A stretch of 64,000 nucleotides of DNA, taken from positions 2,400,001 through 2,464,000 of the forward strand of contig OZ246001.1 in NCBI GenBank assembly GCA_965230295.1, in the 5' to 3' direction. The notes beneath the pieces are model-generated. The model was not told the DNA's origin. It searched no databases and saw nothing but the letters and a program-made list of their open reading frames with translations. Both the position numbers and the translations under genes were made by a program. Source of the DNA: Marinicella sp. (lineage in GTDB: Bacteria; Pseudomonadota; Gammaproteobacteria; Xanthomonadales; Marinicellaceae). Of this stretch, positions 9,700 to 60,596 are shown in pieces (position 1 is the first letter of the stretch; the number at the start of each line of letters is the position of its first letter).

Positions 9700-10248
9700 T
9701 CAGCCAAATGAACCACTGAATAAGCCATCACTTTTGATGCGATCATCCAATACATCAAAACCACCCTTACTTAAGCGGTCGGTATTGGTTTCAAACTCAA
9801 TGGCATTGATGACATCTCCATGCGCCATATTTTGTGGCATGGGAATGTTGGTTTGATTTTGTTGGTTAAGCTGACTGATTTCAGGGATGGCAACAACCAT
9901 GGCAAAGGCAAAGGCCAAGGTGGCTACCGAAGTTTTTAAAGGCGTTTCCATGCCCAAAAAACTGAACCACGAACGTCTTGAGTTTTCAATGGCATCAGCC
10001 ATAACATGACTCCAATCTTTCAGCGCCATTGCACCTTTCATGGCCTGGGCACTGTCGTGGTCACTGATCAAGTCCTCTACATGACTCAAACGAGTTGATG
10101 AAGCGGCAGTGGCAGCATAACAATCATGTGCATCACTACTGGCAGTGTGCTTTTTACTGTTGTTTTGAAACAGTTCAGCCAATTGTTTTTCGGTTAATTT
10201 TATGCCTTTGTCTTTCATCTTTATCACACTCGGTTCAATCAATTTCAT
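9700..10248 (-). CDS. Putative single-pass anti-sigma factor with a repeated acidic-aromatic C-terminal tail
   Basis: Overlaps the ECF sigma stop; one TM helix (SVATLAFAFAMVVAI); tail contains DVINAIEFE, DRLSKGGFD, DGLFSGSFG. Confidence 0.7.
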   Translation of the reverse strand: MKLIEPSVIKMKDKGIKLTEKQLAELFQNNSKKHTASSDAHDCYAATAASSTRLSHVEDLISDHDSAQAMKGAMALKDWSHVMADAIENSRRSWFSFLGMETPLKTSVATLAFAFAMVVAIPEISQLNQQNQTNIPMPQNMAHGDVINAIEFETNTDRLSKGGFDVLDDRIKSDGLFSGSFG

Positions 10249-10783
10249 AAGAAATATTCATTTTTTGCAGTTTATCTTTCAATGCCGCCATGGCTCTTTT
10301 AGATAAATTTTCTGCTTTGTAAAACGGCCATCCTGTTATTTCGGCCATTTCTTTAACTGAGTAGCCTTGTAGTCTCAGCTTGACCGCTACTCGACGACTT
10401 TCGGGTAATGTTTCTATGGCTTCAAGCACCTGTTGTTGGACTTCATGGTCTATAACGGTTTGATCTGGTTCAGCTTCTTGGCTGACCAAATCGGCTTGAT
10501 AACCTTGTTCATCACTGTCTTGTCCGGGTAAAGCGACATCTTGCGTATGTCTTTTGTGCTTTCTGGCCAGATCAATGATGACATTAGCCGCAGTTCTGTA
10601 TATATAAGACGAGAGGTTGTCTATTTCTCGGTCACTTTCTAGAATTTTTATTAATCGAATGGAAACTTCTTGATAAACATCATCGGCTGTAACCCCGATG
10701 ATTTGGATGTTTTTGCTGTAAACGGCCTGCTCAATCAAGTGTTGATGCTGGTGAAAAATTTTTTCAAGTTTGCGTTTGTTCAC
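10235..10783 (-). CDS. ECF sigma-70 factor
   Basis: Region 2 ADDVYQEV...SYIYRTAANVIIDLARK; region 4 LPESRRVAVKLRLQGYSVKEMAEITG. Confidence 0.9.
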   Translation of the reverse strand: MNKRKLEKIFHQHQHLIEQAVYSKNIQIIGVTADDVYQEVSIRLIKILESDREIDNLSSYIYRTAANVIIDLARKHKRHTQDVALPGQDSDEQGYQADLVSQEAEPDQTVIDHEVQQQVLEAIETLPESRRVAVKLRLQGYSVKEMAEITGWPFYKAENLSKRAMAALKDKLQKMNISYEID

Positions 10784-10788
10784 CGTAT

Positions 10789-12348
10789 TTACCAGGCATC
10801 AATAAAAGATAAAATAACACCCTTGGTATTCAATAAGGCATGTTTCTTGGCATATTGTATCGCAGTGAATCCTTGTTTGTTCACAGATTTTGGATTGGCA
10901 CCTAATTTCAACATTTCATGGACAATGTTGGCGATGTGGCTGTCATCGGCTTGATACTTCTTGCTTTTTGCCGCACCACACAAAATGTGTAAGGCCGTGT
11001 TGCCTTGCGGATTAACGGTATTGATGTCTAGCCCATTTTGGTGAATCAGGCGCAAGGTGGCTTTGGCTTTGGCGGTGTTGCCATAATATTCTGCAGCGAT
11101 GGCCACATTGTGATAAAGAGACATGCCAGCTTCATCTTGGGTATTGATGTCAGCACCGGCTTCTAGCAACATGTTGACACAAGCCTCACTCCATTGTGTT
11201 GCGGCCAGTGATAACAGTGGATAACCGCCTGGACCGGTCGCATTGCTTTGTGCGCCATGACTGAGTAACAAGCCAACCAAGGACCGGGAATTGCTGATGA
11301 TGGCACTGGAAAGTGGTGAGCTGCCATTATCCGAACGGTGATCAACATTGGCGTTGTTTTGAATCAAATAGGATGCCACGGCTCGGTGCCCCTTACCGGC
11401 GGCGTGAATCAGTCCGGTACAGCCTTTTGCATCAGTGATGTCTATGGATACGCCCTTGACTTTGAGTTTGTTGATGCGTCCCAGGTTCCCTTCTGTGATG
11501 GCAGCAAACCACTGTGTGCTGTGATCTTTGCTGACTGTTGGAGGAGGAGAACTGACTGTTTGGATTTCATTGTTGTCAGGCTTTGGTGTTTCCTGAATGT
11601 CATTGGTGATTTGATCGTCAGCGGTTAAAAATAAAGGCAATTCCATCTGTTTATCGGCTTCTATTTTGGTCACCAACAACTTGAATATGGCTGGGAATTT
11701 TTTCTCAGCAACGCTGTAAGCAGATTTTCCCCGGTGGTTTTTTGTCGTGCAGTCTACATTGTGCTCCAGCAGGGTTTTGATCAGTTTGGTGTTGGGGTTG
11801 GGCTGTTGCATGGCAATCAGCAAAGCATTGTCACCTTGCTGATTGCAGTGATGGACGTCTGTTTGTTGGGCTATCAGTAATTCAACAATTGGGTTTGATT
11901 GACTGATGACAGCATCTAAATAAGCATTCATGCCATGGTTGTCAGTGGCGGCCAAATCGTCATTGTTTTTAATCAAGTACCTGACTTTTTTCTCATGGCC
12001 CAATAAACAGGCTGTCATCAGTGCTGTGCGACCATTTTTATCAGTCGCTTCCAAGTCACCCGTGTGGGCAAACACCAACTCCAGGCCTTGGGTCATGTCT
12101 TTCTTGTATTGGGTGGCTGCTATCAGAGGCGGGCAGTGGCTTTCTTGCGGAACCATCTGATTGCTTAACAGGTGTTTGGCAATTTTCCATCGCCCATGTT
12201 TGAGTGCTACATTCAAGGGTGCAAAGTCCGGATGGTTCACTTCCTCAATGCCTAACCCTTGATCCATCAAATCAAGCAATTGACTCAATTGTCCTTGGCG
12301 ACAACAAGACAATATTTTCTTGGCGGCATCTGAGAGGGGTTGATTCAC
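10789..12348 (-). CDS. Ankyrin-repeat protein with two repeat blocks joined by a linker
   Basis: Repeats GRTALMTA, GDNALLIA, GCTGLIHAA, GSSPLSSA, GNTALHIL. Confidence 0.9.
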   Translation of the reverse strand: MNQPLSDAAKKILSCCRQGQLSQLLDLMDQGLGIEEVNHPDFAPLNVALKHGRWKIAKHLLSNQMVPQESHCPPLIAATQYKKDMTQGLELVFAHTGDLEATDKNGRTALMTACLLGHEKKVRYLIKNNDDLAATDNHGMNAYLDAVISQSNPIVELLIAQQTDVHHCNQQGDNALLIAMQQPNPNTKLIKTLLEHNVDCTTKNHRGKSAYSVAEKKFPAIFKLLVTKIEADKQMELPLFLTADDQITNDIQETPKPDNNEIQTVSSPPPTVSKDHSTQWFAAITEGNLGRINKLKVKGVSIDITDAKGCTGLIHAAGKGHRAVASYLIQNNANVDHRSDNGSSPLSSAIISNSRSLVGLLLSHGAQSNATGPGGYPLLSLAATQWSEACVNMLLEAGADINTQDEAGMSLYHNVAIAAEYYGNTAKAKATLRLIHQNGLDINTVNPQGNTALHILCGAAKSKKYQADDSHIANIVHEMLKLGANPKSVNKQGFTAIQYAKKHALLNTKGVILSFIDAW

Positions 12349-12404
12349 TTATTTATTCCGTTTCAAACTGTAGAACACAATTCATATTTATGTCAGGGTT
12401 CTGT

Positions 12405-13727
12405 TCAATTGAATGTCAGTGTCGCAGATAATCCCGTGGTGTTGTTGCGTTTTATTTCGATGTCCCAATTATACAGGTCACAAAGTCGTTTGACGATAGC
12501 TAATCCCAATCCCGATCCTTTGCTGTTGGGTTTTCCTGCCCGATAATGGCGGTCAAATAACTTGGGCAGCTCAGATTCAGTGACACCAATGCCTTCATCT
12601 TGTACTGTGACACTGTTTTTATTAAGGATGATATGAACGGTGCCTTCTGTGGTGTATTTGATGGCGTTGCCTATCAAGTTACTGAGCACCACTGACACAA
12701 CTGATTCAGGTGCTTTAACTTGTAACCAATCATTTTCAGTGATCCTGGTTTTTACAGGTTTGAGTTTCAAAGTGGGTTCAAATCCATCAATGATGTTTTT
12801 GATGATTTGGCCTGGCTGGGTCCTTTCATGCCCTGGATGTTCTTTGCGTTCTTCTCTGGCCAACAACAACAGTGTTTCAGTCAATTCTGTGGACTGTTTG
12901 GTGGCACGTTCAATCCGATCAATGCGGTCCAGCTCTTTGCTGGATATGTTGGGGTTTGATTTGATGAGTTCTACAGTGCTGCGTATCACAGTCAGCGGGG
13001 TTCTCAGTTCGTGACTGACATCGGCATTGAATTCTTTGTCTCTGATCACATAGTCAGTTAGTTTTTGTGCGTAGGCATCCAAGGCCTTGGCCACTTGACC
13101 GACTTCGTCATCGTGAAAGTTAGGAGCCAAAGGCTCTAAATGGGTGTCTGCATCCAAGTTCTCTAACATCGCAGCCAGTCTACTCAGTGGTTTGAGGGCT
13201 TTTTTCGATACATAGATGGCCAGTATATATGCCAGTAATAAAAACACCAAAAACATCGCAGTGAAAACCAGAAACAAGGGTTGGGAACTGCTGTCGATAT
13301 GACTGATGTCATTTTTTATGAAGCCCCAAACCGGTTGGTTATTGACCTGATGCCTTTTGTTGACCGCTACGATGAATGTCTTGTTGCCTTCTGTTAATAC
13401 ATGTGTGCCTTCTGTTAAATCGCCATAATGTAAGGGTAAATCCAAATGAAACTTGGACGGTGAAGTGATGAATGCTTCAATGTTGGTTGATACCTGTTCC
13501 TCAGTCAAGATGTTTGGGTTCATGCTGAACTTGAGCATGTAAGCATCCAAGTCTTCCTGAATGGTTTGAGCAATCAAATCATTTTGCAGGCGTTGACGAA
13601 TGCTCAATGAACTGATCGCAAAGAGGGAAGTTAGCAGGGTACTGAAAGCCAGAAATCCGATGATTATCCGGCTTTTTATACTACTCCGAAAGTTCATCCG
13701 GGTCCGAAACATGGTAACCAATGCCAT
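12405..13727 (-). CDS. Sensor histidine kinase (ColS-like); true start probably a few codons downstream
   Basis: Two TMs, HAMP, H-box DVSHELRTPL, N-box NLIGNAIKY, DEGIG, GSGLGLAIV. Confidence 0.93.
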   Translation of the reverse strand: MALVTMFRTRMNFRSSIKSRIIIGFLAFSTLLTSLFAISSLSIRQRLQNDLIAQTIQEDLDAYMLKFSMNPNILTEEQVSTNIEAFITSPSKFHLDLPLHYGDLTEGTHVLTEGNKTFIVAVNKRHQVNNQPVWGFIKNDISHIDSSSQPLFLVFTAMFLVFLLLAYILAIYVSKKALKPLSRLAAMLENLDADTHLEPLAPNFHDDEVGQVAKALDAYAQKLTDYVIRDKEFNADVSHELRTPLTVIRSTVELIKSNPNISSKELDRIDRIERATKQSTELTETLLLLAREERKEHPGHERTQPGQIIKNIIDGFEPTLKLKPVKTRITENDWLQVKAPESVVSVVLSNLIGNAIKYTTEGTVHIILNKNSVTVQDEGIGVTESELPKLFDRHYRAGKPNSKGSGLGLAIVKRLCDLYNWDIEIKRNNTTGLSATLTFN

Positions 13728-14367: not shown

Positions 14368-14468
14368 TTTAATCCTGTCTCAATGGGTTGTGTTTTCTTT
14401 TGTGTCCTTCCTGAATGCAACTCATATCTTCAAGCAAATGACAGCGTTTTGTCATAAGCTTTGCAGCT

Positions 14469-32774: not shown

Positions 32775-34166
32775 ATGTCTTCATCCGTTAAACTCTTAAA
32801 AATTTTACTCTTGTGGGTTGTTTGTCAACCAGCTGATGCTGTGCAAATCAGTCAAGGACGTATTGGGGAAGTGCTGATCTTTCCATACTATACGGTCAAC
32901 AATGGATTAAATACCCTGTACTCAGTGGTGAACACATCAGATCAGCCGATCGCAGCAAAAATTCGTTTTTTAGAAGGCCAGAACGCTGCCGATGTGCTGA
33001 CGTTCAACATCTATTTATCAGCCCATGATGTTTGGACCGGTGCATTGGTTCCAGCACAGTCAACCATAGCGGGCCACCAAGGTGAAGACAGTGTGATGCA
33101 TTTTACCAGTGACCAGTCTTGTGCCCCCTTTTTGTTGAAGAACGGGCAAGAATTTTTGCCTTTCTTGATTGATTTAGATGGCAGTAACGATGATTTGGTG
33201 CGGGCCAGAGATGGGCACTTCGAAGTGTTGGAAATGGGTGTGGTTACTGGAGAAGCGGCCAATCACGTCACTCATGACAGTGATGGCATACCACAAGCCT
33301 GTGAAATGATCTTAGCAGCCTGGGGATTGTCGGGTGAATGGTTGTTGTCAGAGTTGGGTGACCCAGTGGGCGGCTTAACTGGATCTGCATCATTGGTCAA
33401 CGTTTCCGAGGGCCTGTCTTTCTCTTATGATCCATTGGTGTTGAGTGATTTCTGGCAACAGTCAGGCATACATACTGAACCTGGTTCAGAGCTGCCCAAT
33501 TTGAGTTCGGCAGCACCAGAATCCAGGGTCTTTCTCGATGATGGCGAGTGGGCGCTTTCTCAATGGACTCATGGTTATCAAGCGGTTTCTGCGGTGATGA
33601 TGCAGCAAACCATCATCAACGAATATGCCTTGGATTCACTGGTCAATGGCAAATCGGAATGGGTGGTGACCATGCCAACCAAACACCACCACACCAATCA
33701 AGTCCCACTCAGTCAAATACCGCCTTTTACATCACCATGGACAGGTAGAGTGGCTTGTGGTGATTTCGAGATAACAACCTTTGATCGAGAAGAGCAGCTT
33801 GAAATCCTCACCGTCGGTGGCGTTACCAGACCACCGCGTCCTCCAGCACCGCAATTTTGTTTTGCCAGTAACCTATTAGAGTTCATCTTGCCGGGCAATG
33901 ACGCTTCAATTCGTTCAGGCATCCTGGGTTCTACTAACCGCGTCATAGAAAAGACCCCATCTTCAGCCACAACTGAAAACGGTTGGGCGGTTATAGCTTT
34001 CAGTGATGCCAGAAATCAATTGGAGTCACAACAAGGGCCCAGCTATAAAGGGTTGCCAGTCACTGGTTTCGCGGTACAGCAATTTACCAACGGTGGAGCC
34101 GGGCCTGGATTATTGGCCCAATATGGCAGTTTGTTTGAACACAAAGGTACGGTTAAAACTTTTTAA
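32775..34166 (+). CDS. Secreted cell-surface / putative S-layer-type protein, paralogue 1
   Basis: Signal peptide; GEVLIFPYYTVN, LYSVVNT, KIRFLEG, FNIYLS.DVWTG, EWVVTMPTK, ENGW, GLPVTGFA, LAQYGSLF. Confidence 0.8.
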   Translation: MSSSVKLLKILLLWVVCQPADAVQISQGRIGEVLIFPYYTVNNGLNTLYSVVNTSDQPIAAKIRFLEGQNAADVLTFNIYLSAHDVWTGALVPAQSTIAGHQGEDSVMHFTSDQSCAPFLLKNGQEFLPFLIDLDGSNDDLVRARDGHFEVLEMGVVTGEAANHVTHDSDGIPQACEMILAAWGLSGEWLLSELGDPVGGLTGSASLVNVSEGLSFSYDPLVLSDFWQQSGIHTEPGSELPNLSSAAPESRVFLDDGEWALSQWTHGYQAVSAVMMQQTIINEYALDSLVNGKSEWVVTMPTKHHHTNQVPLSQIPPFTSPWTGRVACGDFEITTFDREEQLEILTVGGVTRPPRPPAPQFCFASNLLEFILPGNDASIRSGILGSTNRVIEKTPSSATTENGWAVIAFSDARNQLESQQGPSYKGLPVTGFAVQQFTNGGAGPGLLAQYGSLFEHKGTVKTF

Positions 34167-34168
34167 GG

Positions 34169-35590
34169 ATGAAAATGATGAACACTAAAATGATTTGTAT
34201 GATGGGCGTTTTGTTGGGTGGCTTGGTTTCACAAGTACAGGCCGTTCAAGTGAACCAGCGAGGTCATGGAGAGGTGTTGATTTACCCCTATTACACGGTG
34301 AACAATGACCTCAACACTTTGTATTCAGTGGTCAACACCACAGCAGATACCAAAGCCATCAAGGTGCGTTTTTTAGAAGGTGACATTGGTTTGGAGGTGC
34401 TGTCATTCAACGTATACTTGAGTGCTTTTGATGTCTGGACTGGTGCTCTTTTTTCGAGCACATCTACGATAGCTGATCACGCAGGTGAGGCCACTGCAGT
34501 ACATGTCAGCACAGACACATCCTGCGCGCCTTTTTTGAATAAAGGAGGTCAGGAGTTTTTGCCCTTTGCGATTGATACGGATTCAGATCATGACAATAGG
34601 GGCATGCGCCGGGCAACAGAAGGGCACCTGGAAATCATCGAGATGGGGGTGTTGACAGCTGCAGGTGTTGCCTGGGCTGATCATGGTGTATCTGGTGTAC
34701 CTGCAAATTGTGGCCGAATTCAAGATGATTGGGATGACAACGGCATGTGGAACACCAGTACACCTGATGAGCCCAGTGGCGGCTTGATGGGAGCGGCCAC
34801 ATTGGTGAATGTGGCAGAAGGCATGGCTTTTTCCTACGATGCCATCGCCTTACAAAATTTTTGGCAAGGGCCTGGCAATCACACCGAACCCGGTTCGCCA
34901 GAGCCAGACTTGAATGCAGCTTTTCCTGAATCTCGCGTGTTGTTGGATGATGGAGAAATGGTGGTGTCAGAATGGACCCATGGATTTGAGGCCGTCTCTG
35001 CGGTGTTAACTAAATCCGGCATCATCAATGAATACGCGATTGATCAAGGCGTCGGCGGTAAAACAGAATGGCTACTCAGTTACCCAACCAAAGGCTATCA
35101 CAGTGGGTCAGATGATGTTATAGCACCATTTACACAAACGTGGGATGGCGCAAACGCTTGTGAAACTTTTGCTGTTGAATTGTGGAACCGGGAAGCTTAT
35201 CTGAAGCCGCCCTTATCTTGTGGGTCTGTGACTTGCTCCCCCACTCAAATGTTGCCAAAAATGTGCAAGTCAGCCAATGTGATTTCATTCATTGCACCTG
35301 ATGGTGATGTGATGAGTGAATCAAGGATTTTGGGTTCGGACAATTTATTAACAATTTCAACCATTGATGGCAGTAACAGTGAAAATGGCTGGGCTAAACT
35401 GACATTTCCGGAATCTGCACAAACTGATCCACTTTCAGGTGAAGCTATTAAAGGCATGCCAGTGGCAGGGATTGCCGTTATGCAGTTCACCAATGCAGGC
35501 GCTGCTGAAGGCCTGTTGGCTCAGTATGGATCTTTATTTAGACATAAATTCGTGACCGAATCTATACCAGGAGAAGACAATGATATATAA
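34169..35590 (+). CDS. Secreted cell-surface / putative S-layer-type protein, paralogue 2
   Basis: Same motif series as 32775-34166, collinear over the full length. Confidence 0.8.
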   Translation: MKMMNTKMICMMGVLLGGLVSQVQAVQVNQRGHGEVLIYPYYTVNNDLNTLYSVVNTTADTKAIKVRFLEGDIGLEVLSFNVYLSAFDVWTGALFSSTSTIADHAGEATAVHVSTDTSCAPFLNKGGQEFLPFAIDTDSDHDNRGMRRATEGHLEIIEMGVLTAAGVAWADHGVSGVPANCGRIQDDWDDNGMWNTSTPDEPSGGLMGAATLVNVAEGMAFSYDAIALQNFWQGPGNHTEPGSPEPDLNAAFPESRVLLDDGEMVVSEWTHGFEAVSAVLTKSGIINEYAIDQGVGGKTEWLLSYPTKGYHSGSDDVIAPFTQTWDGANACETFAVELWNREAYLKPPLSCGSVTCSPTQMLPKMCKSANVISFIAPDGDVMSESRILGSDNLLTISTIDGSNSENGWAKLTFPESAQTDPLSGEAIKGMPVAGIAVMQFTNAGAAEGLLAQYGSLFRHKFVTESIPGEDNDI

Positions 35591-36986
35591 ACAATTGAAG
35601 TGGGTCATTTTTTTATTGGCGGTATTCCCCAATGCATGGTCAGTACAACAGAATGACAGTGGTCGGGGAGAGGTATTGATATATCCCTATTACACCACCA
35701 ACAATGGACTTAATACCTTGTATTCAGTGGTCAATACCACGCCAGATTCGAAAGCCATTAAGGTGCGATTTTTGGAAAGTGATATTGGTCTGGATGTGCT
35801 TACTTTCAATGTATATCTAAGCGGTTATGATGTATGGACAGGCGCATTGATTCCAACCACATCTACCATTGCAAATCATGCAGGTGAACCCAGTGTAGCG
35901 CATGTGTCAGCGGATACCTCATGTGCACCATTTTTAGTTAAGGCCGGTCAGGAGTTCCTCCCTTTCCTGATCGATGCGGATTTGGATTCAGATAACCGCA
36001 GTTTAAAACGAGCAACAGAGGGGCACTTGCAAATATTAGAGATGGGTGTTTTAACCGGAGAGGCCGTTGCATGGGTTGATCATGGTGGCATTGGTGTTCC
36101 TGCCAATTGTGGCGCACTTCAAGCAGAGTGGAGTGACAATAGCGAGTGGGATTTGGGTGCATTGGATGAGCCAAGTGGCGGTTTGATTGGTGCCGGTAGT
36201 ATCATCAATGTGGCAGAAGGGATTTCATTTTCGTTTGACGCCATCACCTTACAAGATTTTTGGCAAGGTTCAGGCCAACACACCCAGCCTGGTGATCTGG
36301 TTCCGGACCTGAATGCGGCTTTTCCAGAGTCTACGGTGTTATTGGATGATGGTGACTTGGTGGTTAACAGTTGGGAACATGGTTACCAAGCCGTGTCTGC
36401 CGTACTGACCCGCTCAAAGGTATTTAACGAATATGCTTTGGACCAGGTGGTTGCAGGGAAAACTGAATGGGTGGTTAATTTTCCAACCAAAATACATCAC
36501 AGTGCTGGTCCTGAAGTTGTGCCGCCATTCGTCAGTCCTTGGGACGGTAAACATGCCTGTGAAACGATCAAGTGGGAAATTTGGGACCGTGAGGCCACCT
36601 ATCAGCACCCGCCCATTTGCATCGGCAGCCCTTGTCCTCCCAGACCACTGTTGCCTAAAATGTGTCAAGCTGTGAATGTACTGGATTTTTACTTGGCATC
36701 AGGTGAGACCATGAATCCAACTGAAGTTCTGGGTTCTTACAATCAGCTATCGGTATTTATTGATGCACAGGGTTTCACAGAAAACGGTCAGATTCAGTTA
36801 GAGTTTCCTGAGACAGCTGCGACCACACCCGAAAGTGGTCAGGCTTTACTGGGCTTACCAGTCATCGGTTTTGCAGCACAGCAATTCACCAATGCCGGGG
36901 CTGCTCAAGGCTTGTTGGCGCAGTACGGTTCTTTGTTTAAGCACAAATACAAGATTGAAGTGGCGCCTGTTGATGCAACTAAATGA
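35580..36986 (+). CDS. Secreted cell-surface / putative S-layer-type protein, paralogue 3
   Basis: Same motif series; visibly closest to paralogue 2; overlaps its stop and the uvrD stop. Confidence 0.8.
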   Translation: MIYKQLKWVIFLLAVFPNAWSVQQNDSGRGEVLIYPYYTTNNGLNTLYSVVNTTPDSKAIKVRFLESDIGLDVLTFNVYLSGYDVWTGALIPTTSTIANHAGEPSVAHVSADTSCAPFLVKAGQEFLPFLIDADLDSDNRSLKRATEGHLQILEMGVLTGEAVAWVDHGGIGVPANCGALQAEWSDNSEWDLGALDEPSGGLIGAGSIINVAEGISFSFDAITLQDFWQGSGQHTQPGDLVPDLNAAFPESTVLLDDGDLVVNSWEHGYQAVSAVLTRSKVFNEYALDQVVAGKTEWVVNFPTKIHHSAGPEVVPPFVSPWDGKHACETIKWEIWDREATYQHPPICIGSPCPPRPLLPKMCQAVNVLDFYLASGETMNPTEVLGSYNQLSVFIDAQGFTENGQIQLEFPETAATTPESGQALLGLPVIGFAAQQFTNAGAAQGLLAQYGSLFKHKYKIEVAPVDATK

Positions 36987-49745: not shown

Positions 49746-52025
49746 ATGACTTTAAAACGGTCTTACCACACCGCCATGAAATACCATGTCCACTTCCCAC
49801 TCTTTGTTTGGTTTCTGTTGGCCAGTTTTCAACTACAGGGAGCTGAGGAACAATGGGTGAAAATCAATCACCCCAGTCTTGCCACCCAGGCAGCTTTATC
49901 TGACCAAGGTATACACTATGAAAATTTCATTTGGATCAACAAAGCTACACTCAGTGCAACCAATCTAGCCATCGAATCACAGGTGATCAATCAACCCTTC
50001 AGTTACAGGATAGATGACCAATGGCTGGATTTAAGCTTTACCAGACTGCCTCCCACACCTTGGTATTTGGGGGCACAGACCGTCGGAGAAGATTTTTATT
50101 TGGTACAGTTTGCCGGGCCTATCAAGTCAAGCTGGCTACGAAATGTCAAGGCACACCAAGTCAAGCTGATCAGTCCTTTGGCACCATTCTCATGGATTGT
50201 GTGGGGCAATCCTGGCCAATTGGAACATCTGGAACGTGAGAAGCAAGTCAGAAAGGTATATCCTTTTTTTCCTGCCTTTCGTGTTCAACGCGAAAACAGG
50301 TCATTACCTGATCAGGCCATACCGACCATGGCTCTGGTTTACCAGGGAATTCAGGCACAAATCATGATTCAACTACAAAAACTGGGTGTAGTGATTGAAC
50401 AGGTGAACCCCATCAACGACCAATTATCTGCCATCACTTTCACCGTCAAAGGTAATCAATACTTGAAATTGGCTCAAACCCCAGGGATATTAACTGTACA
50501 ACAAATTCATCAGGATGGAGGCGCTCGAGGAGAAATGAGTCAGCAGTCCATTGTAGGGAATTATGATGACAGCAACCAGGTTCAAACTGGATATGCCACT
50601 TGGCTTAGTGACACAGGATTGGATGGTTCTGGTGTCACAGTTGCAGTGGTAGATGGCGGTATTTATCAAAATCACCCTGATCTCAGTAATGTCATTCAAT
50701 GTGTGGGTGATGGTGACAGTTGTGCTGACAGCAATGATTCGCATGGCACCCATGTGGCAGGGGCCATCGGGGGTACTGGTGTGGCCAATTCACTGAATGC
50801 GGCAGGTTTTAACCGCGGTTTGGGTGTGGCCCCTGGTGTGCAAATCGTTGAACAGCTGTATGGTCCTTTGTTAGGCGGTGGCCCTGGTGGCATGGTTGCA
50901 GGAGGGATGCTGTCTATATATAAAGATTCAGCCACCAGTGGTGCTTTATTGAGTAACAATTCCTGGGGGCCAACTGGTACGCCACAAGGTTATGACATCC
51001 CCACCATGGAAGTGGATATGATCAGTCGGGATGCCAATCCTGATGAGCCAGGTAATCAACCTGTTTTGGCTGTTTGGTCCATCATGAATGGCAATGGTGA
51101 TCGCAATTCCGGATCATGTGCGCCTTCTTCATTGGGTTCACCTGATGAAGCCAAGAACTTGTTCGCGGTGGGTTCGACCAAATTACAAAATTCCAATGCA
51201 ACCCAGATCTCGGCAATCTTTGATGTGTCATCCAACAGTGCCCATGGCCCTGCTTGTGATGGGCGCCTGGTCCCGCATATTGTGGCCCCGGGTTGCCGCA
51301 CTGAGGCACCTGATAGCAGCACTGGATATGGTATGAAATGCGGAACATCTATGGCATCGCCTGTGATGTCAGGGTCGATTGCCTTGTTCTGGGAAAAATA
51401 CCGCTCCCGATATACAGTTGATCCAAGTCCTGCTTTAATCAAGGCTGTGTTCACCGCAGTGGCAGATAATTTAAATGGCCAGGATAATGCCGATGGTAAC
51501 CCCATTGGGCATGCACCAGATCGACAACAAGGTTGGGGTCGGGTAAACCTGGATGTGGTCATCAATTCATTTGCTGAATTTTGGTTCCATGACCAAGTCA
51601 CTGTATTCACCGATTCAGGACAGAACTGGCAACAAAGCGTTGCCCCCATCAATCCTGAACTACCCATCAGGGTGATGTTGGTTTGGACTGATGCACCTGG
51701 TGCTGGTTTAGGTGGCACCAACCCTGCATGGGTCAATGATCTGGATTTAACAGTTACCACAAATGTGGACTATTTGGGCAATCAATTTGGTTCAGACAGC
51801 TATTCAACCACCGGAGGATTGGCAGATGACAAGAACAATATGGAAGCGGTCTTTCTAACCGCTGATCAACACATGGGGCAGAAAATCGGCATTGAAGTGA
51901 TGGCCAGTAACATTGCTGCCGATGCATTGAACCCTTTCAATCCCGATGCACCACAACAGGATTTTGCTTTGGTCTGTTTTAACTGTTTTGATAACGACCT
52001 CATCTTTATGGATGGGTACGATTAA
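49746..52025 (+). CDS. Secreted subtilisin-like S8 peptidase (Kp43-like) with C-terminal DLIFMDGYD tag; start may be 49776
   Basis: Triad VAVVDGG, SHGTHVAG, GTSMASP; SNNSWG; LVWTDAPG and VNDLDL C-domain; QDFALV. Confidence 0.93.
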   Translation: MTLKRSYHTAMKYHVHFPLFVWFLLASFQLQGAEEQWVKINHPSLATQAALSDQGIHYENFIWINKATLSATNLAIESQVINQPFSYRIDDQWLDLSFTRLPPTPWYLGAQTVGEDFYLVQFAGPIKSSWLRNVKAHQVKLISPLAPFSWIVWGNPGQLEHLEREKQVRKVYPFFPAFRVQRENRSLPDQAIPTMALVYQGIQAQIMIQLQKLGVVIEQVNPINDQLSAITFTVKGNQYLKLAQTPGILTVQQIHQDGGARGEMSQQSIVGNYDDSNQVQTGYATWLSDTGLDGSGVTVAVVDGGIYQNHPDLSNVIQCVGDGDSCADSNDSHGTHVAGAIGGTGVANSLNAAGFNRGLGVAPGVQIVEQLYGPLLGGGPGGMVAGGMLSIYKDSATSGALLSNNSWGPTGTPQGYDIPTMEVDMISRDANPDEPGNQPVLAVWSIMNGNGDRNSGSCAPSSLGSPDEAKNLFAVGSTKLQNSNATQISAIFDVSSNSAHGPACDGRLVPHIVAPGCRTEAPDSSTGYGMKCGTSMASPVMSGSIALFWEKYRSRYTVDPSPALIKAVFTAVADNLNGQDNADGNPIGHAPDRQQGWGRVNLDVVINSFAEFWFHDQVTVFTDSGQNWQQSVAPINPELPIRVMLVWTDAPGAGLGGTNPAWVNDLDLTVTTNVDYLGNQFGSDSYSTTGGLADDKNNMEAVFLTADQHMGQKIGIEVMASNIAADALNPFNPDAPQQDFALVCFNCFDNDLIFMDGYD

Positions 52026-52941: not shown

Positions 52942-53240
52942 GCCGCAACACAACAACTGTAACGCCCTCAATCAACCTTGTTTTTTACATATTTTTCTAG
53001 CCAAACGTGTCATTGGGTTGCTCATTTCCTTCACCAATAATTGCGAATGAAGCATCATCTAAAATGGCATGACCTTGCGTAATCCAATCAATCATTGAGC
53101 CATGAAAATAAGGGGTATATAGTCATGCAAATGAATGACAATTAAAGTGAATTCAGAATTATTCAGGACTTTTCAGAACTGGAGTGGAGAAGGCTCATTA
53201 TGATGAATGCCACTGTATTTTGAATCGAGGAGTCCGCCCA

Positions 53241-54491
53241 ATGAAAGCCAAGTATTTATTGTTACTGATGATGGTTAAACCTTTATCAGCTGCAGAGTTG
53301 ACCATACCCAACACATTCAGCCCCAACACACCGGCCAGGTCCAGTGAAGTGAATGATAACTTCAGCGCCATTGAAGCATCAGTTGATGACAACGACAGCC
53401 GTATAGACACACTGGAAGGCTTGGTGGCAACCATGCAGTCTCAGATTGCAGCTTTACAAGCTCAAAATACCCAGCAACAAGCCACCATCAACGCCCTCCA
53501 AAACAACTCAGTCCTGGCTTTAGATGGGTTATTGACGCTGGGAACATATGATGGGTATGACACAGCCATTTTTGATGGGGTTAATGTGCAAGTCCTCAAT
53601 GGAGCAGATGTGAGTCCTAATGACACAGTGATCAATGGTTTGGGAAATTTAATCATTGGTTATAACTGGGACAATGTGGTGCTACCTGGCGCTTTTTGTT
53701 CCAATGGCCAATATGACGACCAAACAGACTGCCAAAACAATGGCCATATCTGGGGCGCTCACCAGCATTCCGGTTCGCATAATCTGGTCATGGGGACCGG
53801 CAACTCCTACGTTTCAGGTGGTGCCATTGTGGCTGGGAAATTCAATATTTCAAACAGCAGTTATGGCAGTGTTTTGGGTGGCTCTACCAATCGAGTCAGG
53901 GATGTTGATTCAGTGATTGTGGGTGGGTCGCAAAATTTAATCTCCGAAGATGATGCGGTGATTCTGGGAGGTAAGGACAACACAGTTGATGGCAACCACG
54001 GCACCATCGTAGGGGGTGAAGACAATGTGGTCAGTGGCAGTTATGCCAGTATCACCAGCGGTTATCAAAATCAGGCAACGGCCAGTCGGTCCAGCGTCAC
54101 TGGTGGCCGGCAAAACCAAGCCATACAAGCCTACAGCAGCGTCCATGGTGGTTTTGCTAATACGGCAAGTGGCAATTACACTGCAGTTTCAGGTGGCAGA
54201 GACAATGTTGCCTTTGGCCAATACGCGGTGGTCAGTGGTGGTTGGGAGAATACGGCCCAAGGTGAGTACAGCGCCATTCTGGGTGGTGAAAACAACACGA
54301 CCAATGGCAGACAGTCGGTGATTACAGGCGGTTTCATTAACATTACAGGCGTGTCTGCTACCTGGTCTTCGGTCACTGGTGGCAGGTCTAACCAAACCAT
54401 TGGGACCGAATCAACCGTCAGTGGCGGGTTCAATCGCGATGCCTTTGGTAGTGCCGATTGGGTGGCAGGATCTTTGTTCGAAGATGACTGA
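53241..54491 (+). CDS. Secreted fibre-like protein: IPNTF...EVNDNF N-domain, coiled coil, 15-aa beta-helix repeats
   Basis: GAGGAG RBS before ATG 53241; signal peptide; heptad stretch RIDTLEGLVATMQSQIAALQAQNTQQQATINALQ; about 13 SVxGGxxNxAxG repeats. Confidence 0.8.
   Translation: MKAKYLLLLMMVKPLSAAELTIPNTFSPNTPARSSEVNDNFSAIEASVDDNDSRIDTLEGLVATMQSQIAALQAQNTQQQATINALQNNSVLALDGLLTLGTYDGYDTAIFDGVNVQVLNGADVSPNDTVINGLGNLIIGYNWDNVVLPGAFCSNGQYDDQTDCQNNGHIWGAHQHSGSHNLVMGTGNSYVSGGAIVAGKFNISNSSYGSVLGGSTNRVRDVDSVIVGGSQNLISEDDAVILGGKDNTVDGNHGTIVGGEDNVVSGSYASITSGYQNQATASRSSVTGGRQNQAIQAYSSVHGGFANTASGNYTAVSGGRDNVAFGQYAVVSGGWENTAQGEYSAILGGENNTTNGRQSVITGGFINITGVSATWSSVTGGRSNQTIGTESTVSGGFNRDAFGSADWVAGSLFEDD
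53860..54455 (+). repeat. Tandem 15-residue (45-bp) S/A-V/I-x-G-G-x-x-N repeats (approximate bounds)
   Basis: e.g. DAVILGGKDNTVDG, YSSVHGGFANTASG, YAVVSGGWENTAQG, YSAILGGENNTTNG. Confidence 0.85.
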
Positions 54492-54504
54492 TTCGGAGCT
54501 GATC

Positions 54505-54921
54505 ATGAACTTAAAGACTAAAATAATCATGGGTATGTGCTTGATGGTTTCCGTGGGTACCTCAATGGCCAATGACTTGATTTTTAAAACCGGGTTTGAA
54601 AACCAATACGCAATCGGTGGTCAGGTGAATGGTTTAACATCTTCACCTTTGGTGTTGGAATTGATCAGTGTTTCAGGGCCTGATGAGGTCACGATAACAA
54701 CAGATGGCACCTTCTACTTTGAGCTTTTGGTCAGTGCAGGCCATGCATGGCGGGTGGAATTGAAATCGTTGCCCAGCCAACCCGGGCAACAAAGCTGCCA
54801 ATTAAGTAACAATTCCGGTAGCGCTTTGCCTGTGGGCGGGGTGAATGATGTCAATATCAATTGCCAAAACCAGGCTTGGGACTGGGATGTGATGGATTGG
54901 GATCAGGGTGGTTGGAACTAG
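54505..54921 (+). CDS. Small secreted protein: N-terminal DLIFKTGFE tag, one beta-sandwich repeat, C-terminal WDWDVMDWDQGGWN
   Basis: GGAG RBS before ATG 54505; signal peptide ending SMA; YAIGGQVNGL...P.QQ.C.L.N.SG...V.I.C module. Confidence 0.78.
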   Translation: MNLKTKIIMGMCLMVSVGTSMANDLIFKTGFENQYAIGGQVNGLTSSPLVLELISVSGPDEVTITTDGTFYFELLVSAGHAWRVELKSLPSQPGQQSCQLSNNSGSALPVGGVNDVNINCQNQAWDWDVMDWDQGGWN

Positions 54922-56357: not shown

Positions 56358-56444
56358 ATTAATTGTCATTTTAAGTTCCCTCATGTTTATATTTTATACA
56401 GGTCAAGTATAATGCAGGGTTTTGCATTATCCTTGAATCAACCC

Positions 56445-57380
56445 ATGGAAAATAACAACAACGAATTCCTCACTTTTCAGGACTTGATACTCAAATTACA
56501 AGAGTTCTGGGCAGCGCATGGATGTGTGATCATTCAGCCATTGGATTTAGAGGTGGGTGCAGGTACTTTCCACCCGGCCACTTTTTTGCGTTCAATCGGA
56601 CCTGAGCCTTGGAACAGCGCTTATGTGCAGCCTTGTCGTCGGCCCACTGATGGTCGTTATGGCGAGAACCCCAATCGATTACAGCATTATTATCAGTTTC
56701 AAGTGGTGCTGAAACCGTCACCCAAAGACATTCAGGAATTGTATTTGAAGTCGTTGGCGGCCATTGGTGTCGATACATTGGAGCATGACATTCGGTTTTT
56801 AGAGGACAACTGGGAATCACCCACTTTGGGTGCCTGGGGCCTGGGCTGGGAAGTGTGGCTTAATGGCATGGAAGTGACCCAATTCACCTATTTCCAACAG
56901 GTCGGCGGCCTGGAATGCAAGCCAGTGATGGGAGAGATTACCTATGGGTTAGAGCGATTGGCCATGTACCTGCAAAACAAAGACGGCATCTTTGATCTGA
57001 TCTGGGCAGAAACACCGAACGGCACAGTGACTTATGGTGATGTCTATCATCAAAATGAAGTGGAACAATCTGCCTATAACTTTGAACAGGCTGATGTGCC
57101 TGAATTGTTCAATGCATTCAATGAAGCAGAAAGCGCGTGTTTGAACTTAATTGAAAAAGAGTTGCCTTTACCAGCTTATGAAAAAGCTTTGAAAGCTTCA
57201 CACCTGTTTAATTTACTGGATGCACGCAAAGCCATCAGTGTTACCGAGCGTCAGCAATTCATCTTAAAGGTTCGTAACATGTCTAAACAAGTGGCACAAA
57301 TGTATTACCAGTCTCGTGAAGCATTGGGTTTTCCAGGTTTAAAGAATCAAGCTAAAGAAATTCAGCAGGAGGCGAAATAA
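56445..57380 (+). CDS. glyQ: Glycine-tRNA ligase alpha subunit
   Basis: [43 protein letters not shown]; TATAAT at 56408-56413 argues for the ATG at 56445. Confidence 0.97.
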
Positions 57381-57382
57381 TC

Positions 57383-59485
57383 ATGGCTGATATTTTATTC
57401 GAACTGGGTTGTGAAGAACTGCCACCAAAAGCTTTGTATGGCTTGTCAGAATCACTGTTCAATGGTGTGGTCAAACAGTTAAAAACGGCTGGTTTCAGCT
57501 GGGATGAGAACCAATCACGGTGGTTTGCTTCACCCAGGCGCCTGGCCTTTCAATTGAGCAACATATCTGAACAACTGGCTGATCAGAGTATAGAGAAAAG
57601 AGGGCCGGCTGTGGCCGCAGCCTTTGATGACGCAGGTCATGCCAAACCAGCTGCCATGGGTTTCGCCCGTTCGGTGGGTGTTGAAGTATCCGATTTGACC
57701 AGGTTACAGACAGACAAAGGTGAATACCTGGCTTACACCGTTACCGAAAAAGGTTTGCAAATTGATCAAGTTTTGCCTGAATACATCAGTCAATCGATCA
57801 AACAATTGCCGATTCCAAAACCCATGCGGTGGGGGAGCAATGATTACAGTTTCATTCGCCCGGTCCATTGGATGGTCTTGTTAAAAGATGGCGATGTGAT
57901 TCCAATGGAATTGTTTGGTTTACAAACCAGCAACCAAAGTTTGGGGCACCGTTTTCATCACAATGAATATGTATCCATCCCACACGTCAATGATTACGTG
58001 CAAGTGTTACAAGACGCACACATCATGGTAGACCAAGATCAGCGGGAAAAGTTGATAGCCGAACAAGTCAAAGCCGCCGCTGCTTCCGTGGGCGGTGTGG
58101 CCAAAATCGGTGCCAACTTGCTGTCAGAAGTGGCCAGTATTGTTGAGAAGCCATCGGCGGTGCTGGGTCAATTCAGTGAAGACTTCTTGGCAGTACCCAA
58201 AGAAGCCTTGATTTCTTCAATGGAAAAACACCAAAAATATTTCCCGGTTGAAGACACCAATGGTCAACTCATGCCCTATTTCGTGGCTTTGGCCAACATC
58301 GATTCGACCAACCCAGCAGCTGTGAAAAAGGGCTTTGAAAAAGTCATCACACCGCGTTTGGCAGACGCCAGATTCTTCTGGGAGAAAGACCAAGCCAGAC
58401 CTTTGACCGATAACATCCCATTGTTGGAAAAAATGGTGTTTGAAAAGTCGTTGGGTTCCTATAAAGATAAATCAGATCGAGTTGCTACACTACTGCGGTG
58501 GATTGCGCCTAAACTAAAGTTCGACAATACAGAAAGTAATGAAGCTGCGACCTTGATGAAATGTGACTTGATGTCAGATATGGTCGATGAATTTCCTGAT
58601 TTACAGGGACTGATGGGAGGGTATTATGCAAAAGCTCAGAGTGATAACGGTACTCATCCTGTCAGCGACGATGTTTGGAAAGCGATTCGTGACCAATATC
58701 TTCCTAAATTTGTGGGTGATCAATTACCAGAAACAACTTTGGGGCAGGCATTGTCGATTGCCGATAAAATAGACACTTTATGTGGTATTTTCGCCGTGGG
58801 TAAAAAACCGAGTGGGTCTAAGGATCCTTTTGCTTTAAGAAGAGCTGCATTGGGTGTGATTAATATTCTGATAGATAAAGAATTAAATATCGATTATGAA
58901 GAATTGCTTTTTGAGGCAATTAAAATTGTTTCAGCACAAGTGACTGTTACGGATGAAACTAAAGAAGAAACTTTGATGTTTTTTAATGAAAGGTTAAGAA
59001 ATCAATTCGTAAACAATGGTTATTCACATGATGCCATTAGTGCAGCCAACCATGTCGGTACAACTACATTAACTAACCTTAAAGATCGATTGGATGCAAC
59101 AGAAGCATTCAAGCAGCAACCTTATGCTAAATCGTTGATTGAAGCAAATAAGCGATCAGTTAATATTATCGCAAAAGCCAATTTGGAAAAAAATCCTGCT
59201 GATCTAGCCCTCAATGTTGAGAAATTTGAATCTGAATTTGAGCAAAGACTACATGATGAAATAGCAAAAATTCAATCTGAATTCCAGACTTTGGTGAATG
59301 ATAAGGAGTATGGAAAAGGATATGAGTTGCTGTCATCTTTGGCAGAACCGTTGGATCAATATTTTGAACATGTGATGGTAAATGTGGAAGATGAAGAAAT
59401 TCGCCTGAACAGATTGGTTCAATTGGCACATTTCAGCAAATTAACCAGTTCAATTGCAGACCTGTCACAGTTAGTTAAAAGTTGA
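57383..59485 (+). CDS. glyS: Glycine-tRNA ligase beta subunit
   Basis: LFELGCEELPP, SPRRLA, MRWG, FIRPVHW, HQKYF, RLADARFF, EFPDLQG, GSKDPFALRR, NRL. Confidence 0.97.
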   Translation: MADILFELGCEELPPKALYGLSESLFNGVVKQLKTAGFSWDENQSRWFASPRRLAFQLSNISEQLADQSIEKRGPAVAAAFDDAGHAKPAAMGFARSVGVEVSDLTRLQTDKGEYLAYTVTEKGLQIDQVLPEYISQSIKQLPIPKPMRWGSNDYSFIRPVHWMVLLKDGDVIPMELFGLQTSNQSLGHRFHHNEYVSIPHVNDYVQVLQDAHIMVDQDQREKLIAEQVKAAAASVGGVAKIGANLLSEVASIVEKPSAVLGQFSEDFLAVPKEALISSMEKHQKYFPVEDTNGQLMPYFVALANIDSTNPAAVKKGFEKVITPRLADARFFWEKDQARPLTDNIPLLEKMVFEKSLGSYKDKSDRVATLLRWIAPKLKFDNTESNEAATLMKCDLMSDMVDEFPDLQGLMGGYYAKAQSDNGTHPVSDDVWKAIRDQYLPKFVGDQLPETTLGQALSIADKIDTLCGIFAVGKKPSGSKDPFALRRAALGVINILIDKELNIDYEELLFEAIKIVSAQVTVTDETKEETLMFFNERLRNQFVNNGYSHDAISAANHVGTTTLTNLKDRLDATEAFKQQPYAKSLIEANKRSVNIIAKANLEKNPADLALNVEKFESEFEQRLHDEIAKIQSEFQTLVNDKEYGKGYELLSSLAEPLDQYFEHVMVNVEDEEIRLNRLVQLAHFSKLTSSIADLSQLVKS

Positions 59486-59490
59486 TTAAG

Positions 59491-59515
59491 TGGAGAGGTG
59501 ACCTGCATCTCTCCA
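59491..59515 (+). terminator. Hairpin after glyS
   Basis: TGGAGAGGTG-ACCTG-CATCTCTCCA. Confidence 0.55.
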
Positions 59516-59645
59516 ATCATTTAAATAACAGATTAGGCTGTAAAAATCAGCCATAAATCCCCAAGAACATGCCTCCATTAGCTGGAATTGATCATGGTGT
59601 TATGTCATGATATGCCATCTATAATAATTATATAAAATAAAAGAG

Positions 59646-60596
59646 GTGAATATGGTGTTAAAGGTAGTCAATCAATCCAGAATGATTTGTCTGTTGGTGG
59701 TGTTTTTCAGTACAAATTCTGCGGCAAGGGGACAAGCAAACTGTGAGTATTTGCGAGACACTACCACACTGGGTGTAGAGCCTGATTATTGTATAGACAA
59801 CCCCTCCGAGTCAATCAAGTCACAGGCAACAGATTCAGTCCCTGATGTCGTTAAAAATGGAGTATCCGTACCTACCTCTTTTGGCTATGAATACAGAAGC
59901 ACAGATACCTTATTCACCCACCCTGTGAATGATTTTTCAACCCAAACAACCATAGGATCAATTCCTGATTCACTTCGAGCCATGGCTTTTAATGAATCAG
60001 CAAGTACTTTATATGCACTTGAAAATAATGCCAAAGAGTTAGTCATAGTTGACCAAATAAGTGGTGGCCTTACCACTGTTGGGTCATTGACCAATCTAGA
60101 TCCAGATGATGATTTAACCGGTATCGACATCGCTCCCGATGGGACCTGTTATGTAACAAGCAGTGATGAAATGACCAACACTTTGTATACTTGTGATTTA
60201 GCCACCGGAACACTAACAGTGGTGGGCTCCCAAACCATCACGCCATTTTTGGTTGGCATAGCCGCAGATTGTGAAGGTAATTTATACGGACATGACATCG
60301 CTGCTGACAGTATTTACAGCATTGACACTTCTGATGGGTCTGCCAGCCTCATTGGTGCTACAGGCATCAATGCCAATTTCACCCAAGATTTGACGTTTGA
60401 CCGCTATTCAGGCAACTTAATCGGGTACATTTATATTGAGCAAAGTATGAATGTATACGCGCAAATCGATGTTTGTACTGGCAACGCCACGCCAATCAAT
60501 ACAGATGATCCTTTGGGTGCTTATATTGGTGCTTCCAAAACAGACTGTGCATTGACTGAATTGATTTTCAATGATGGTTTTGACTCTGGTTGTTAA
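59646..60596 (+). CDS. Secreted Cys-containing beta-propeller-like protein with C-terminal ELIFNDGFD tag
   Basis: Signal peptide; blades LVIVDQISGGLTTVG, LYTCDLATGTLTVVG, IYSIDTSDGSASLIG, YAQIDVCTGNATPI. Confidence 0.78.
   Translation: MNMVLKVVNQSRMICLLVVFFSTNSAARGQANCEYLRDTTTLGVEPDYCIDNPSESIKSQATDSVPDVVKNGVSVPTSFGYEYRSTDTLFTHPVNDFSTQTTIGSIPDSLRAMAFNESASTLYALENNAKELVIVDQISGGLTTVGSLTNLDPDDDLTGIDIAPDGTCYVTSSDEMTNTLYTCDLATGTLTVVGSQTITPFLVGIAADCEGNLYGHDIAADSIYSIDTSDGSASLIGATGINANFTQDLTFDRYSGNLIGYIYIEQSMNVYAQIDVCTGNATPINTDDPLGAYIGASKTDCALTELIFNDGFDSGC

Follow-up and report, generated by a model that had tools for sequence, protein, structure and literature searches.

Why should unrelated exported proteins of one bacterium carry the same nine residues at one end of the chain? 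The question is raised by a 64,000-nucleotide stretch of a Marinicella genome (contig OZ246001.1, positions 2,400,001 to 2,464,000, hereafter the window), in which three proteins bear a nonapeptide that we call the tag. The S8 family peptidase encoded at 49746..52025 on the plus strand (759 residues, with an N-terminal signal-peptide-like segment; Pfam Peptidase_S8, E 2e-32) has DLIFMDGYD as its C-terminus (plus strand, 51996..52022), with the stop codon directly after it. The DUF6923/DUF4394 beta-propeller at 59646..60596 (plus strand, 316 residues, with a signal peptide; Pfam DUF6923 E 1.5e-11, DUF4394 E 1.1e-9) carries ELIFNDGFD near its C-terminus (plus strand, 60558..60584), followed by SGC and a stop codon. 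In the small secreted protein at 54505..54921 (plus strand, 138 residues) the tag is found at the other end. The open reading frame (ORF) 54379-54921 contains an internal ATG at 54505 that yields a typical signal peptide; from there the protein reads MNLKTKIIMGMCLMVSVGTSMA up to the predicted cleavage site (between …TSMA and N) and continues as N-DLIFKTGFE, so that the tag (plus strand, 54574..54600) begins one residue past the cleavage. The original prediction for this DNA had pointed out these three tags, all of which we confirm, and had read them as a portable docking segment with a receptor of its own; the findings below favour that idea, which is not thereby proven. The explanation that we consider the most economical, and to which we give about an even chance, is a natural split-domain docking system, in which a jelly-roll domain would be divided between a short arm on many cargo proteins and a single secreted catcher.

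Pfam and NCBIfam name the domains of the peptidase and of the propeller, find no family for the small protein, and contain no hidden Markov model (HMM) that covers the tail of any of the three; a family model of this kind is what the original prediction said would remove the novelty. The tag is followed neither by a transmembrane helix nor by a basic tail, and its separation from PEP-CTERM, IPTL-CTERM and GlyGly-CTERM signals, also proposed then, holds. Directly upstream of the N-terminally tagged small protein, positions 53184-54491 of the window encode a 435-residue secreted protein with a coiled coil and LbR_Ice_bind-type beta-roll repeats, which ends …GSLFEDD-stop and resembles a tag two residues short.

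The tag is abundant in the genome that holds the window (a single contig of 4.008 Mb, 44% G+C), where counting was based on a rough gene set, 3340 ORFs without overlaps. The pattern [ILVM]F..[GDSN][FYW][DE] lies at most 12 residues from the C-terminus in 104 proteins, whereas 20 residue shuffles average 1.45 and never exceed 4; elsewhere in the proteins it is found 34 times for 33.7 expected. The consensus is D-[LV]-I-F-x-[DNS]-[GD]-F-[ED]. A broader pattern, accepted up to 15 residues from the C-terminus, gives 118 carriers of about 3340 proteins (approximately 3%), versus 4.45 by shuffling (maximum 8), and an interval of the same size placed 100 residues upstream contains it in only 3 proteins. 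The logo over the 118 carriers, with which the tag of the peptidase agrees, reads D (89), L/V/P, I (97), F (107), any residue, D/N/S, G/D, F (111), and finally E (71) or D (47); position 6 is variable, being D, N, S, T, H or G. The motif forms the very end of the protein in 64 of the 118, while in the other 54 (about 46%) it is not exactly terminal, up to 15 residues following it, and the four commonest C-terminal tripeptides of the whole proteome are GFE, DFE, GFD and NFD. Once the tag is removed, the carriers fall into 67 single-linkage BLASTP clusters, 53 of them singletons, and codons vary between copies of the tag.

The carriers are overwhelmingly exported proteins. A crude and lax heuristic finds a signal peptide in 90 of 104 carriers, versus 1256 of the 3236 other ORFs; most of the 14 negative carriers show an N-terminal hydrophobic segment by eye, one of them having a leader of the twin-arginine translocation (Tat) type, RRxFL, and at least one carrier has a lipobox, again by eye. 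The enrichment at the termini of secreted proteins that had been anticipated is thus borne out, and so is the presence of the tag at either end, since it stands directly after the signal peptide in about five proteins, the small protein of the window among them. In four proteins it lies between domains, and one protein contains two tandem tags. Dense arrays of tagged paralogues at genome positions 3786422-3861678 and 3045808-3060217 supply the largest clusters of carriers; one array comprises about 14 genes whose products have tails of the type …GKSYV(V/I)FG… ahead of the tag, which we take to be FG-GAP-like, and the other consists of seven tandem genes. A protein of 560 to 580 residues keeps a tag-like segment after its signal peptide in two genomes at 42% identity, PIFASGFE in one (G028, contig C1, locus L002 at 1662000-1680000, ORF 11539-13278) and SIYQSNYE in the other (3161283-3162965 of the Marinicella genome), which indicates that N-terminal tags can persist over order-level distances. 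The gene paired with it has a Tat-type leader, and the two presumably represent a DUF1800/DUF1501 pair.

Outside this genome, a strict DNA pattern (I-F-x-x-[G/D/E]-F-[D/E]-stop, whose final codon class, TRR, also lets TGG through) gives 46 matches in the Marinicella genome itself, 12 to 59 in each of 23 other genomes of the genus, 66 in a second genus of the family and 2 to 18 in other families of the order, for 0 to 2 with a reversed-pattern control. In two families (f6 and f7) a looser pattern brings out the tag as x-F-[AS]-D-G-F-E, directly before the stop codon or close to it, and among 20 stretches picked for tag-like codons the motif lies at most four residues from the stop in 14 (8/10 in G029, 5/7 in G040 and 1/3 in G030). 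The tag is present in 39 of 41 relatives, the Marinicella genome included, and in 11 of the 12 sampled families of the order; the two genomes of family f2 show no sign of it. In an even draw of 300 other genomes from the class the strict pattern never matches more than 3 times per genome, and among the genomes sampled the tag is limited to the order. The closest named homologues of the window proteins are from Marinicella, and the link with relatives in the Xanthomonadales, named in the original prediction, is compatible with this distribution.

Where does such a tag come from? A first indication is given by the homologues of the propeller, inspected for the best 150 of 3014 representatives. 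They share a common domain end, after which the tails diverge. By regular expression 17 of the 150 bear a tag, many of them in a longer form, …IFADGFESGDTSAWSxxxP; by a hydropathy rule 19 have a hydrophobic tail that looks by eye like IPTL-CTERM or PEP-CTERM; and the remaining 114 include tails that look by eye like those of the type IX secretion system (T9SS). The tag therefore sits where sorting signals sit. Two further short endings recur in this set, …PVELQSFSVE-stop and …(Y/I)YLP(L/I)(V/I)xK…-stop; neither could be matched with a recognised sorting signal, and both may be further tags.

The long form, …IFADGFESGDTSAWSxxVP-stop, spans 20 residues and is common in Acidobacteriota. No NCBIfam or Pfam model describes it (nine long-form proteins, searched at E values up to 1-10), the sole hint being a match at E 0.04 to the first residues of the 'NTTRR-F1' domain. 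A collection of species genomes scanned for FxDGFE[ST]Gx4W contains at least 120 stretches with the long form; 130 matches were listed, mostly from metagenome-assembled genomes (MAGs) of Acidobacteriota (Thermoanaerobaculia and Holophagae). Among the matches listed, 98 of the 130 lie at most 10 residues from the stop codon, and 66 have exactly five residues after the W, of which 58 end in P. In 21 of the 130 listed, more than 30 residues follow in frame. From the matches listed we collected 22 stretches in which the motif is followed by over 100 residues, and these contain intact domains of about 200 residues that start with the tag sequence, in Chloroflexi, Armatimonadota and other MAGs; some are weakly matched by Pfam Polysacc_lyase, CBM_4_9, Laminin_G_3 and PL14. 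Since the intact domains open with it, the tag corresponds to the N-terminal arm (…IFxDGFE…) of a jelly roll of the ConA-like type. The unsplit state is best illustrated by a 'Deltaproteobacteria' MAG (G346), which encodes giant proteins, with open frames of up to 2168 residues, made of tandem intact copies (loci L187/L192/L196, contig C39 at 105554-110383, and other loci). Each of the three copies shown begins with an arm of the GFESG/DFESG type, the first reading W-F-S-D-G-F-E-S-G-D-L-S-A-W, then eight residues, then A-L-S-V. The same genome also encodes long tags and a short arm-less jelly-roll protein, and its intact copies display the sum of tag and catcher.

If the arm has been detached, what has become of the rest of the domain? 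When the Marinicella genome was searched with an HMM built from the 22 intact domains, a single folded protein was found (E 8.1e-11), aligned only from a conserved W onward; the only other match was the tail of the genome's single long-form tag. This protein, JR248, is a secreted jelly-roll protein of 248 residues encoded on the minus strand at 1802183-1802929 of the genome, about 598 kb outside the window. The profile of its family (JR) finds no second JR copy in the genome, and neither this profile nor the intact-domain HMM finds an intact domain of the JR type there. JR248 has a signal peptide, and its mature end reads Q-C-D-N-T-N-G-A-A-W; a chain that starts in this way is missing the hydrophobic I-F part of the arm. 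Its 50 database homologues are all of about 240 to 270 residues and unnamed. In alignment A1 of the family, 41 of 41 sequences show a signal peptide followed by (x)C-D-x-x-N-L-S-A-W, and an invariant C-terminal …DE[FY]ESRRQTFI. An alignment of the JR family with the intact domains by hhalign has a probability of 99.35% (E 6e-21), and in it the JR signal peptide ends over the arm's I-F.

JR248 matches no model of Pfam or NCBIfam. Its AlphaFold2 model is a confident beta-sandwich (predicted local distance difference test, pLDDT, 87.7; predicted template modelling score 0.84), and a Foldseek search with this model returns 194 matches in the PDB at E<=0.001, with alginate lyases of polysaccharide lyase family 7 (PL7) on top. 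The best is 1vav_A (E 3.5e-7, template modelling (TM) scores 0.52/0.57), and other near folds, at TM scores of about 0.5, are glucuronan and ulvan lyases, GH131 and lectin-like domains. On this model, JR248 belongs to the ConA-like beta-jelly-roll/PL7-like fold. The neighbours of its gene recur as homologues in the Marinicella genome and at least nine others of the genus; judging from their sequences, they can be read as sulfotransferase-like, acyltransferase and glycosyltransferase-like proteins, suggestive of a surface-polysaccharide locus. At the C-terminus of the JR proteins from three genomes the Pfam model Dockerin_1 is matched above its cut-off of 22.9 bits (G028 24.2, G030 24.6 and G034 35.5 bits), and that of G032 scores 19.2 bits, under the cut-off.

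A further comparison is between organisms with the short and the long tag. In the other families of the order, JR homologues start, after the signal peptide, with (x)C-x3-7-W, which matches the short tags found there. In the long-tag genomes, the JR homologues are short ORFs that start later, the signal peptide being followed by A-[ST]-L-x-V-T…, and most of them end right after …D-x-Y-x-S-x-R; they are therefore without roughly the segment that the 20-residue tag supplies. Read from the sequences, the split point of the JR protein shifts with the length of the tag between two phyla. The two elements also occur together. JR was searched for with profile A1 and with a broader profile, A2; in the class sample one of the 300 genomes was unscored, and at most 9 candidates were scored per genome. 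Among the 41 relatives A1 finds JR in 25 and A2 adds five, all 30 being tag-bearing, which makes 30 of the 39 tag-bearing relatives (the Marinicella genome included) and neither of the two tag-free genomes of family f2. JR was found in 2 of the 299 other genomes of the class, and in 9 of 10 long-tag genomes (4/5 by A1, 5/5 by A2).

We submitted residues 23-248 of JR248, with an alignment, to complex prediction together with the last 40 residues of the propeller, which contain its tag. The score was 0.45 (runs of 0.50, 0.42 and 0.45), while the best of three controls reached 0.03, and contacts agreed to at least 85% between runs, with a partner pLDDT of 45-47. The verdict of the procedure is 'weak support'. 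When calibrated, the procedure passed 58 of 80 solved complexes and 2 of 110 mismatched pairs, but scores of 0.60 or less were held by only 7 of the 80 solved complexes and by both passing mismatches. As the pair had been chosen on independent sequence grounds, we count the result as modest support.

We propose that the nonapeptide is a portable docking tag that reproduces the N-terminal arm of a jelly roll. Cargo exported by Sec or Tat would insert its free tail into the vacant site of JR248, and thereby complete the fold in trans, a single catcher serving more than 100 types of cargo. JR248 would in turn fasten the cargo to the surface of the cell or to its matrix: in Marinicella possibly via the surface polysaccharide whose biosynthesis locus seems to encode it, and in GC-rich sister families via the C-terminal type I dockerin module of JR, which would attach to a scaffold. 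The split point would have evolved in step, to give a short tag in Gammaproteobacteria and a long one in Acidobacteriota and others. That such a system exists across phyla is a proposition that we consider evenly balanced between true and false. Physical binding of the tag to JR248 is weakly suggested by the complex prediction, and both the site where cargo would be bound (periplasm or surface) and the anchoring that would follow are conjectural.

Several observations weigh against this proposal. The chief weakness is that JR was not found in 9 of the 39 tag-bearing relatives. Six of these are Marinicella MAGs, namely G005, G009, G011, G016 and G020 (66-89% complete) and G013 (97% complete, in 110 contigs); the others are G031, G040 and G039, the last searched with A1 alone. 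The gene adjoining that of JR248 is missing too in all five JR-less Marinicella assemblies tested, so that the variable locus is either unassembled or truly absent, and in the latter case the tag can do without JR. One long-tag genome likewise yielded no JR (G340, profile A1 alone), and the two JR-positive genomes of the class sample carry one possible long tag each. In the hhalign alignment the Q-C-D-N of JR248 overlaps the G-F-E-S of the arm, and complementarity is therefore only approximate in Marinicella. Modelled as part of an intact domain, the arm is extended and forms a single beta-bridge (pLDDT 56-80) but no regular strand, for which reason we speak of an arm. The complex score of 0.45 falls in a range where, unless the pair was already likely, a pass is mistaken more often than not, and no interface is reported. 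Finally, a single catcher for about 118 types of cargo poses a problem of stoichiometry.

Two other functional scenarios should be considered. The tag could be a signal for translocation across the outer membrane, read in the periplasm by a secretion system of type II (T2SS) or by a JR-like pilot that passes cargo on to one, surface docking being secondary or absent. The carriers are indeed exported by Sec or Tat or are lipoproteins (90 of 104 by the heuristic, the rest mostly by eye), and two T2SSs are present in the genome. T2SS 1 has gspCDEF, with a PDZ-type GspC, at 654370-659829, and a cluster of prepilin-type (pseudopilin-like) ORFs at about 2608600-2609500 is taken as its pseudopilins; T2SS 2 is a complete Xps-like operon at 857482-867919; the type IV pilus cluster at 359966-364955 includes a third secretin. 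A GspN/C-like protein of the second T2SS is found in 38 of the 41 genomes, that is, in every sampled family except the tag-free f2, and JR, having a signal peptide, could meet its cargo in the periplasm. In Vibrio, one study (PMC12369372) reports that the GspC PDZ domain is needed for one tagged class of T2SS cargo. However, the GspC-PDZ gene, which adjoins the secretin gene, is present in 36 of 41 relatives and was not found in the tag-bearing G031 and G032; we reject it as the specific reader. The tag also fits poorly with such a reader, as its last residue is acidic, unlike that of classical PDZ ligands, about 46% of tags stop short of the exact terminus, and some stand at the N-terminus or inside the chain. 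A secreted protein family syntenic with the Xps-like cluster (described below) is present in 9 of the 300 tag-free genomes of the class, which suggests that a T2SS of this kind is not tag-specific, and no T2SS component co-varies with the length of the tag, as JR does. We consider a translocation signal unlikely, if still worth keeping in mind. It is also conceivable that the tag acts without JR and that their resemblance reflects common descent only: the tag might bind polysaccharide, lipopolysaccharide or Ca2+ directly, use another receptor, or swap arms with intact jelly-roll domains. The nine tag-bearing genomes in which JR is not detectable point this way, as does the weakness of the complex prediction; moreover the tag is acidic and aromatic, as short segments that bind glycans or cations may be. 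Against this stand the co-occurrence of JR with the tag (30/39 tag-bearing relatives, 0/2 tag-free ones and 2/299 in the class) and the shift of the JR N-terminus with tag length in two phyla, which is hard to explain without a functional link; for arm swapping in particular, no intact domain was found in the Marinicella genome that could be the partner. A role without JR is in our judgement doubtful.

Lastly, the tails might have no function at all and be remnants of truncated C-terminal jelly-roll domains, as the tag shares its origin with the opening segment of a real domain which, in other organisms, is often found at the ends of secreted proteins. Yet the same nine residues recur on 118 proteins from 67 unrelated clusters, with codons that vary between copies, and they are conserved across the order. 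The end points are precise, lying at the motif itself in 64 of 118 cases and, among the long tags listed, at a P in 58 of 66, and some tags are N-terminal, after signal peptides. That so many genes should each have been truncated at one and the same point is implausible, and we hold this hypothesis to be very improbable.

Split-domain docking by JR248 was also set against the other receptors that had been put forward. The original prediction had named a group of paralogues in the window and T2SS parts, and neither proposal stands. The paralogues (32775-36986, three tandem genes) belong to a secreted family of about 470 residues with 11 copies in the genome, the other eight being at genome positions 233751, 494636, 495996, 855496, 1418106, 2579249, 2682126 and 3720947. 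The family is found in 39 of the 41 relatives, and also in the nine tag-free class genomes mentioned above, and one of its copies is itself tagged; we reject it as the receptor. Pfam has no match for the three copies of the window, and in a protein atlas the family appears only as unnamed 'cell surface protein' clusters. The Xps-like T2SS has one copy just downstream of its secretin, an arrangement that recurs, by coordinates, in the families of the order that hold both genes. Four loci of the family are directly beside tagged genes, and one copy ends DLIYLDGFEN. The family may be a major T2SS cargo or a surface component. As for the T2SS, none of its parts is encoded among the ten window ORFs scanned with Pfam, both clusters are elsewhere, and GspC-PDZ does not track the tag. 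The truncated jelly-roll protein is a better candidate than either. In genomes with few tags, the neighbourhoods of tag genes (7 loci, in G027 and G028) have as their only recurring neighbour an alpha-2-macroglobulin-like lipoprotein, at 2 loci; around the long tags (120 loci, among the matches listed) only one family recurs, at 12 loci, which we take to be an abundant kinase/TPR family, and no partner emerged. A covalent mechanism of the SpyTag type, with an isopeptide bond, was dropped, since position 6 of the tag is not conserved as D or N.

How does the tag compare with known systems? The sorting signals of the LPXTG/sortase, PEP-CTERM/exosortase, IPTL-CTERM, GlyGly-CTERM/rhombosortase and MYXO-CTERM/myxosortase pairs likewise put a short signature near the C-terminus of dozens to more than 100 unrelated exported proteins, and they too are lineage-restricted, with many carriers for a single partner gene. 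These signals are described (10.1101/2023.06.07.544157) as tripartite: a motif, a transmembrane helix and an Arg/Lys cluster. The tag shares with them a C-terminal signature repeated across the proteome (118 versus 4.45), and nothing more of that architecture. No transmembrane segment follows the motif, there being 0 to 15 residues after it and none in 64 of 118 carriers; in place of a terminal Arg/Lys cluster the motif ends in E (71) or D (47); and the three window proteins and nine long-form proteins match no sorting-domain HMM. The partners of the tripartite signals are intramembrane proteases, whereas the candidate partner of the tag is a soluble secreted jelly-roll protein; unlike those signals, the tag is also found at N-termini, and there is no sign of cleavage.

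Other C-terminal signals differ as well. The C-terminal domain (CTD) of T9SS cargo is likewise found on surface or secreted proteins exported by Sec, in numbers of up to hundreds. It is a folded domain of about 70-100 residues; the tag has nine, and no match to the Por_Secre_tail models was found in the window proteins. Cargo of the type I secretion system lacks a Sec signal peptide, and 90 of the 104 carriers are positive for one. Ligands of PDZ domains present a hydrophobic free C-terminus, while the tag ends in E or D and is non-terminal in 54 of the 118; nor does a PDZ gene co-occur with it consistently, as seen above for GspC.

Closest in concept come donor-strand complementation, cohesin-dockerin display and engineered tag/catcher pairs. 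In donor-strand complementation systems, such as chaperone-usher pili, TasA fibres and archaeal jelly-roll filaments like AbpX and the cannulae, a fold that is without a peripheral segment is completed by another polypeptide. The JR family shares the first of these features, being without a segment that is present in its intact homologues; completion in trans, for which the complex prediction gives 'weak support', would be the second. In donor-strand systems, however, one family polymerises head to tail, whereas here a single catcher family would take up one and the same arm from cargo of over 60 unrelated families, and the proposal calls for no polymer. Examples of donor-strand complementation that involve jelly rolls are reported (bioRxiv 10.64898/2026.01.04.697558). 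In the cellulosomes, many secreted enzymes and adhesins similarly plug one small module into a common adaptor, and several JR catchers of the sister families themselves carry a type I dockerin; but a dockerin is a folded module of about 60 residues and the joint is between two folded domains, whereas the tag has 9-20 residues and is proposed to complete a fold. SpyTag/SpyCatcher likewise pairs a short peptide from the edge of a beta-sandwich with the rest of the domain. Such pairs are man-made and closed by an isopeptide bond, while the present one would be natural and shows no conserved pattern of reactive residues. Neither form of the tag, nor the JR family, is described in Pfam or NCBIfam or in the openly accessible literature that we searched.

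If the proposal is true, the sorting and display of bacterial proteins can follow a new principle, one that does without sortase-like enzymes: the characterised small sorting tags of prokaryotes are tripartite and read by membrane proteases, and a non-membrane tag of 9-20 residues that is read through fold completion would constitute a new class. One common fate would then be given to about 3% of the proteome in Marinicella and its relatives, and to many 'hypothetical' exported proteins in Acidobacteriota and other phyla, and annotators would gain a simple rule for predicting surface and secreted proteins. The system would also offer a handle, accessible with peptides and a single small protein, on the way in which Gram-negative cells choose and keep folded exoproteins once Sec or Tat has exported them, and the short- and long-form pairs might be put to use as non-covalent tag/catcher tools, provided that they are orthogonal.

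One further locus of the window deserves mention, which appears unrelated to the tag. At 9700-12348, the gene of a sigma factor of the extracytoplasmic function type (10235-10783) is followed by that of a 518-residue ankyrin-repeat protein (10789-12348), together with a small ORF for which Pfam gives no match; this pairing of a sigma factor with an ankyrin-repeat protein is unusual.

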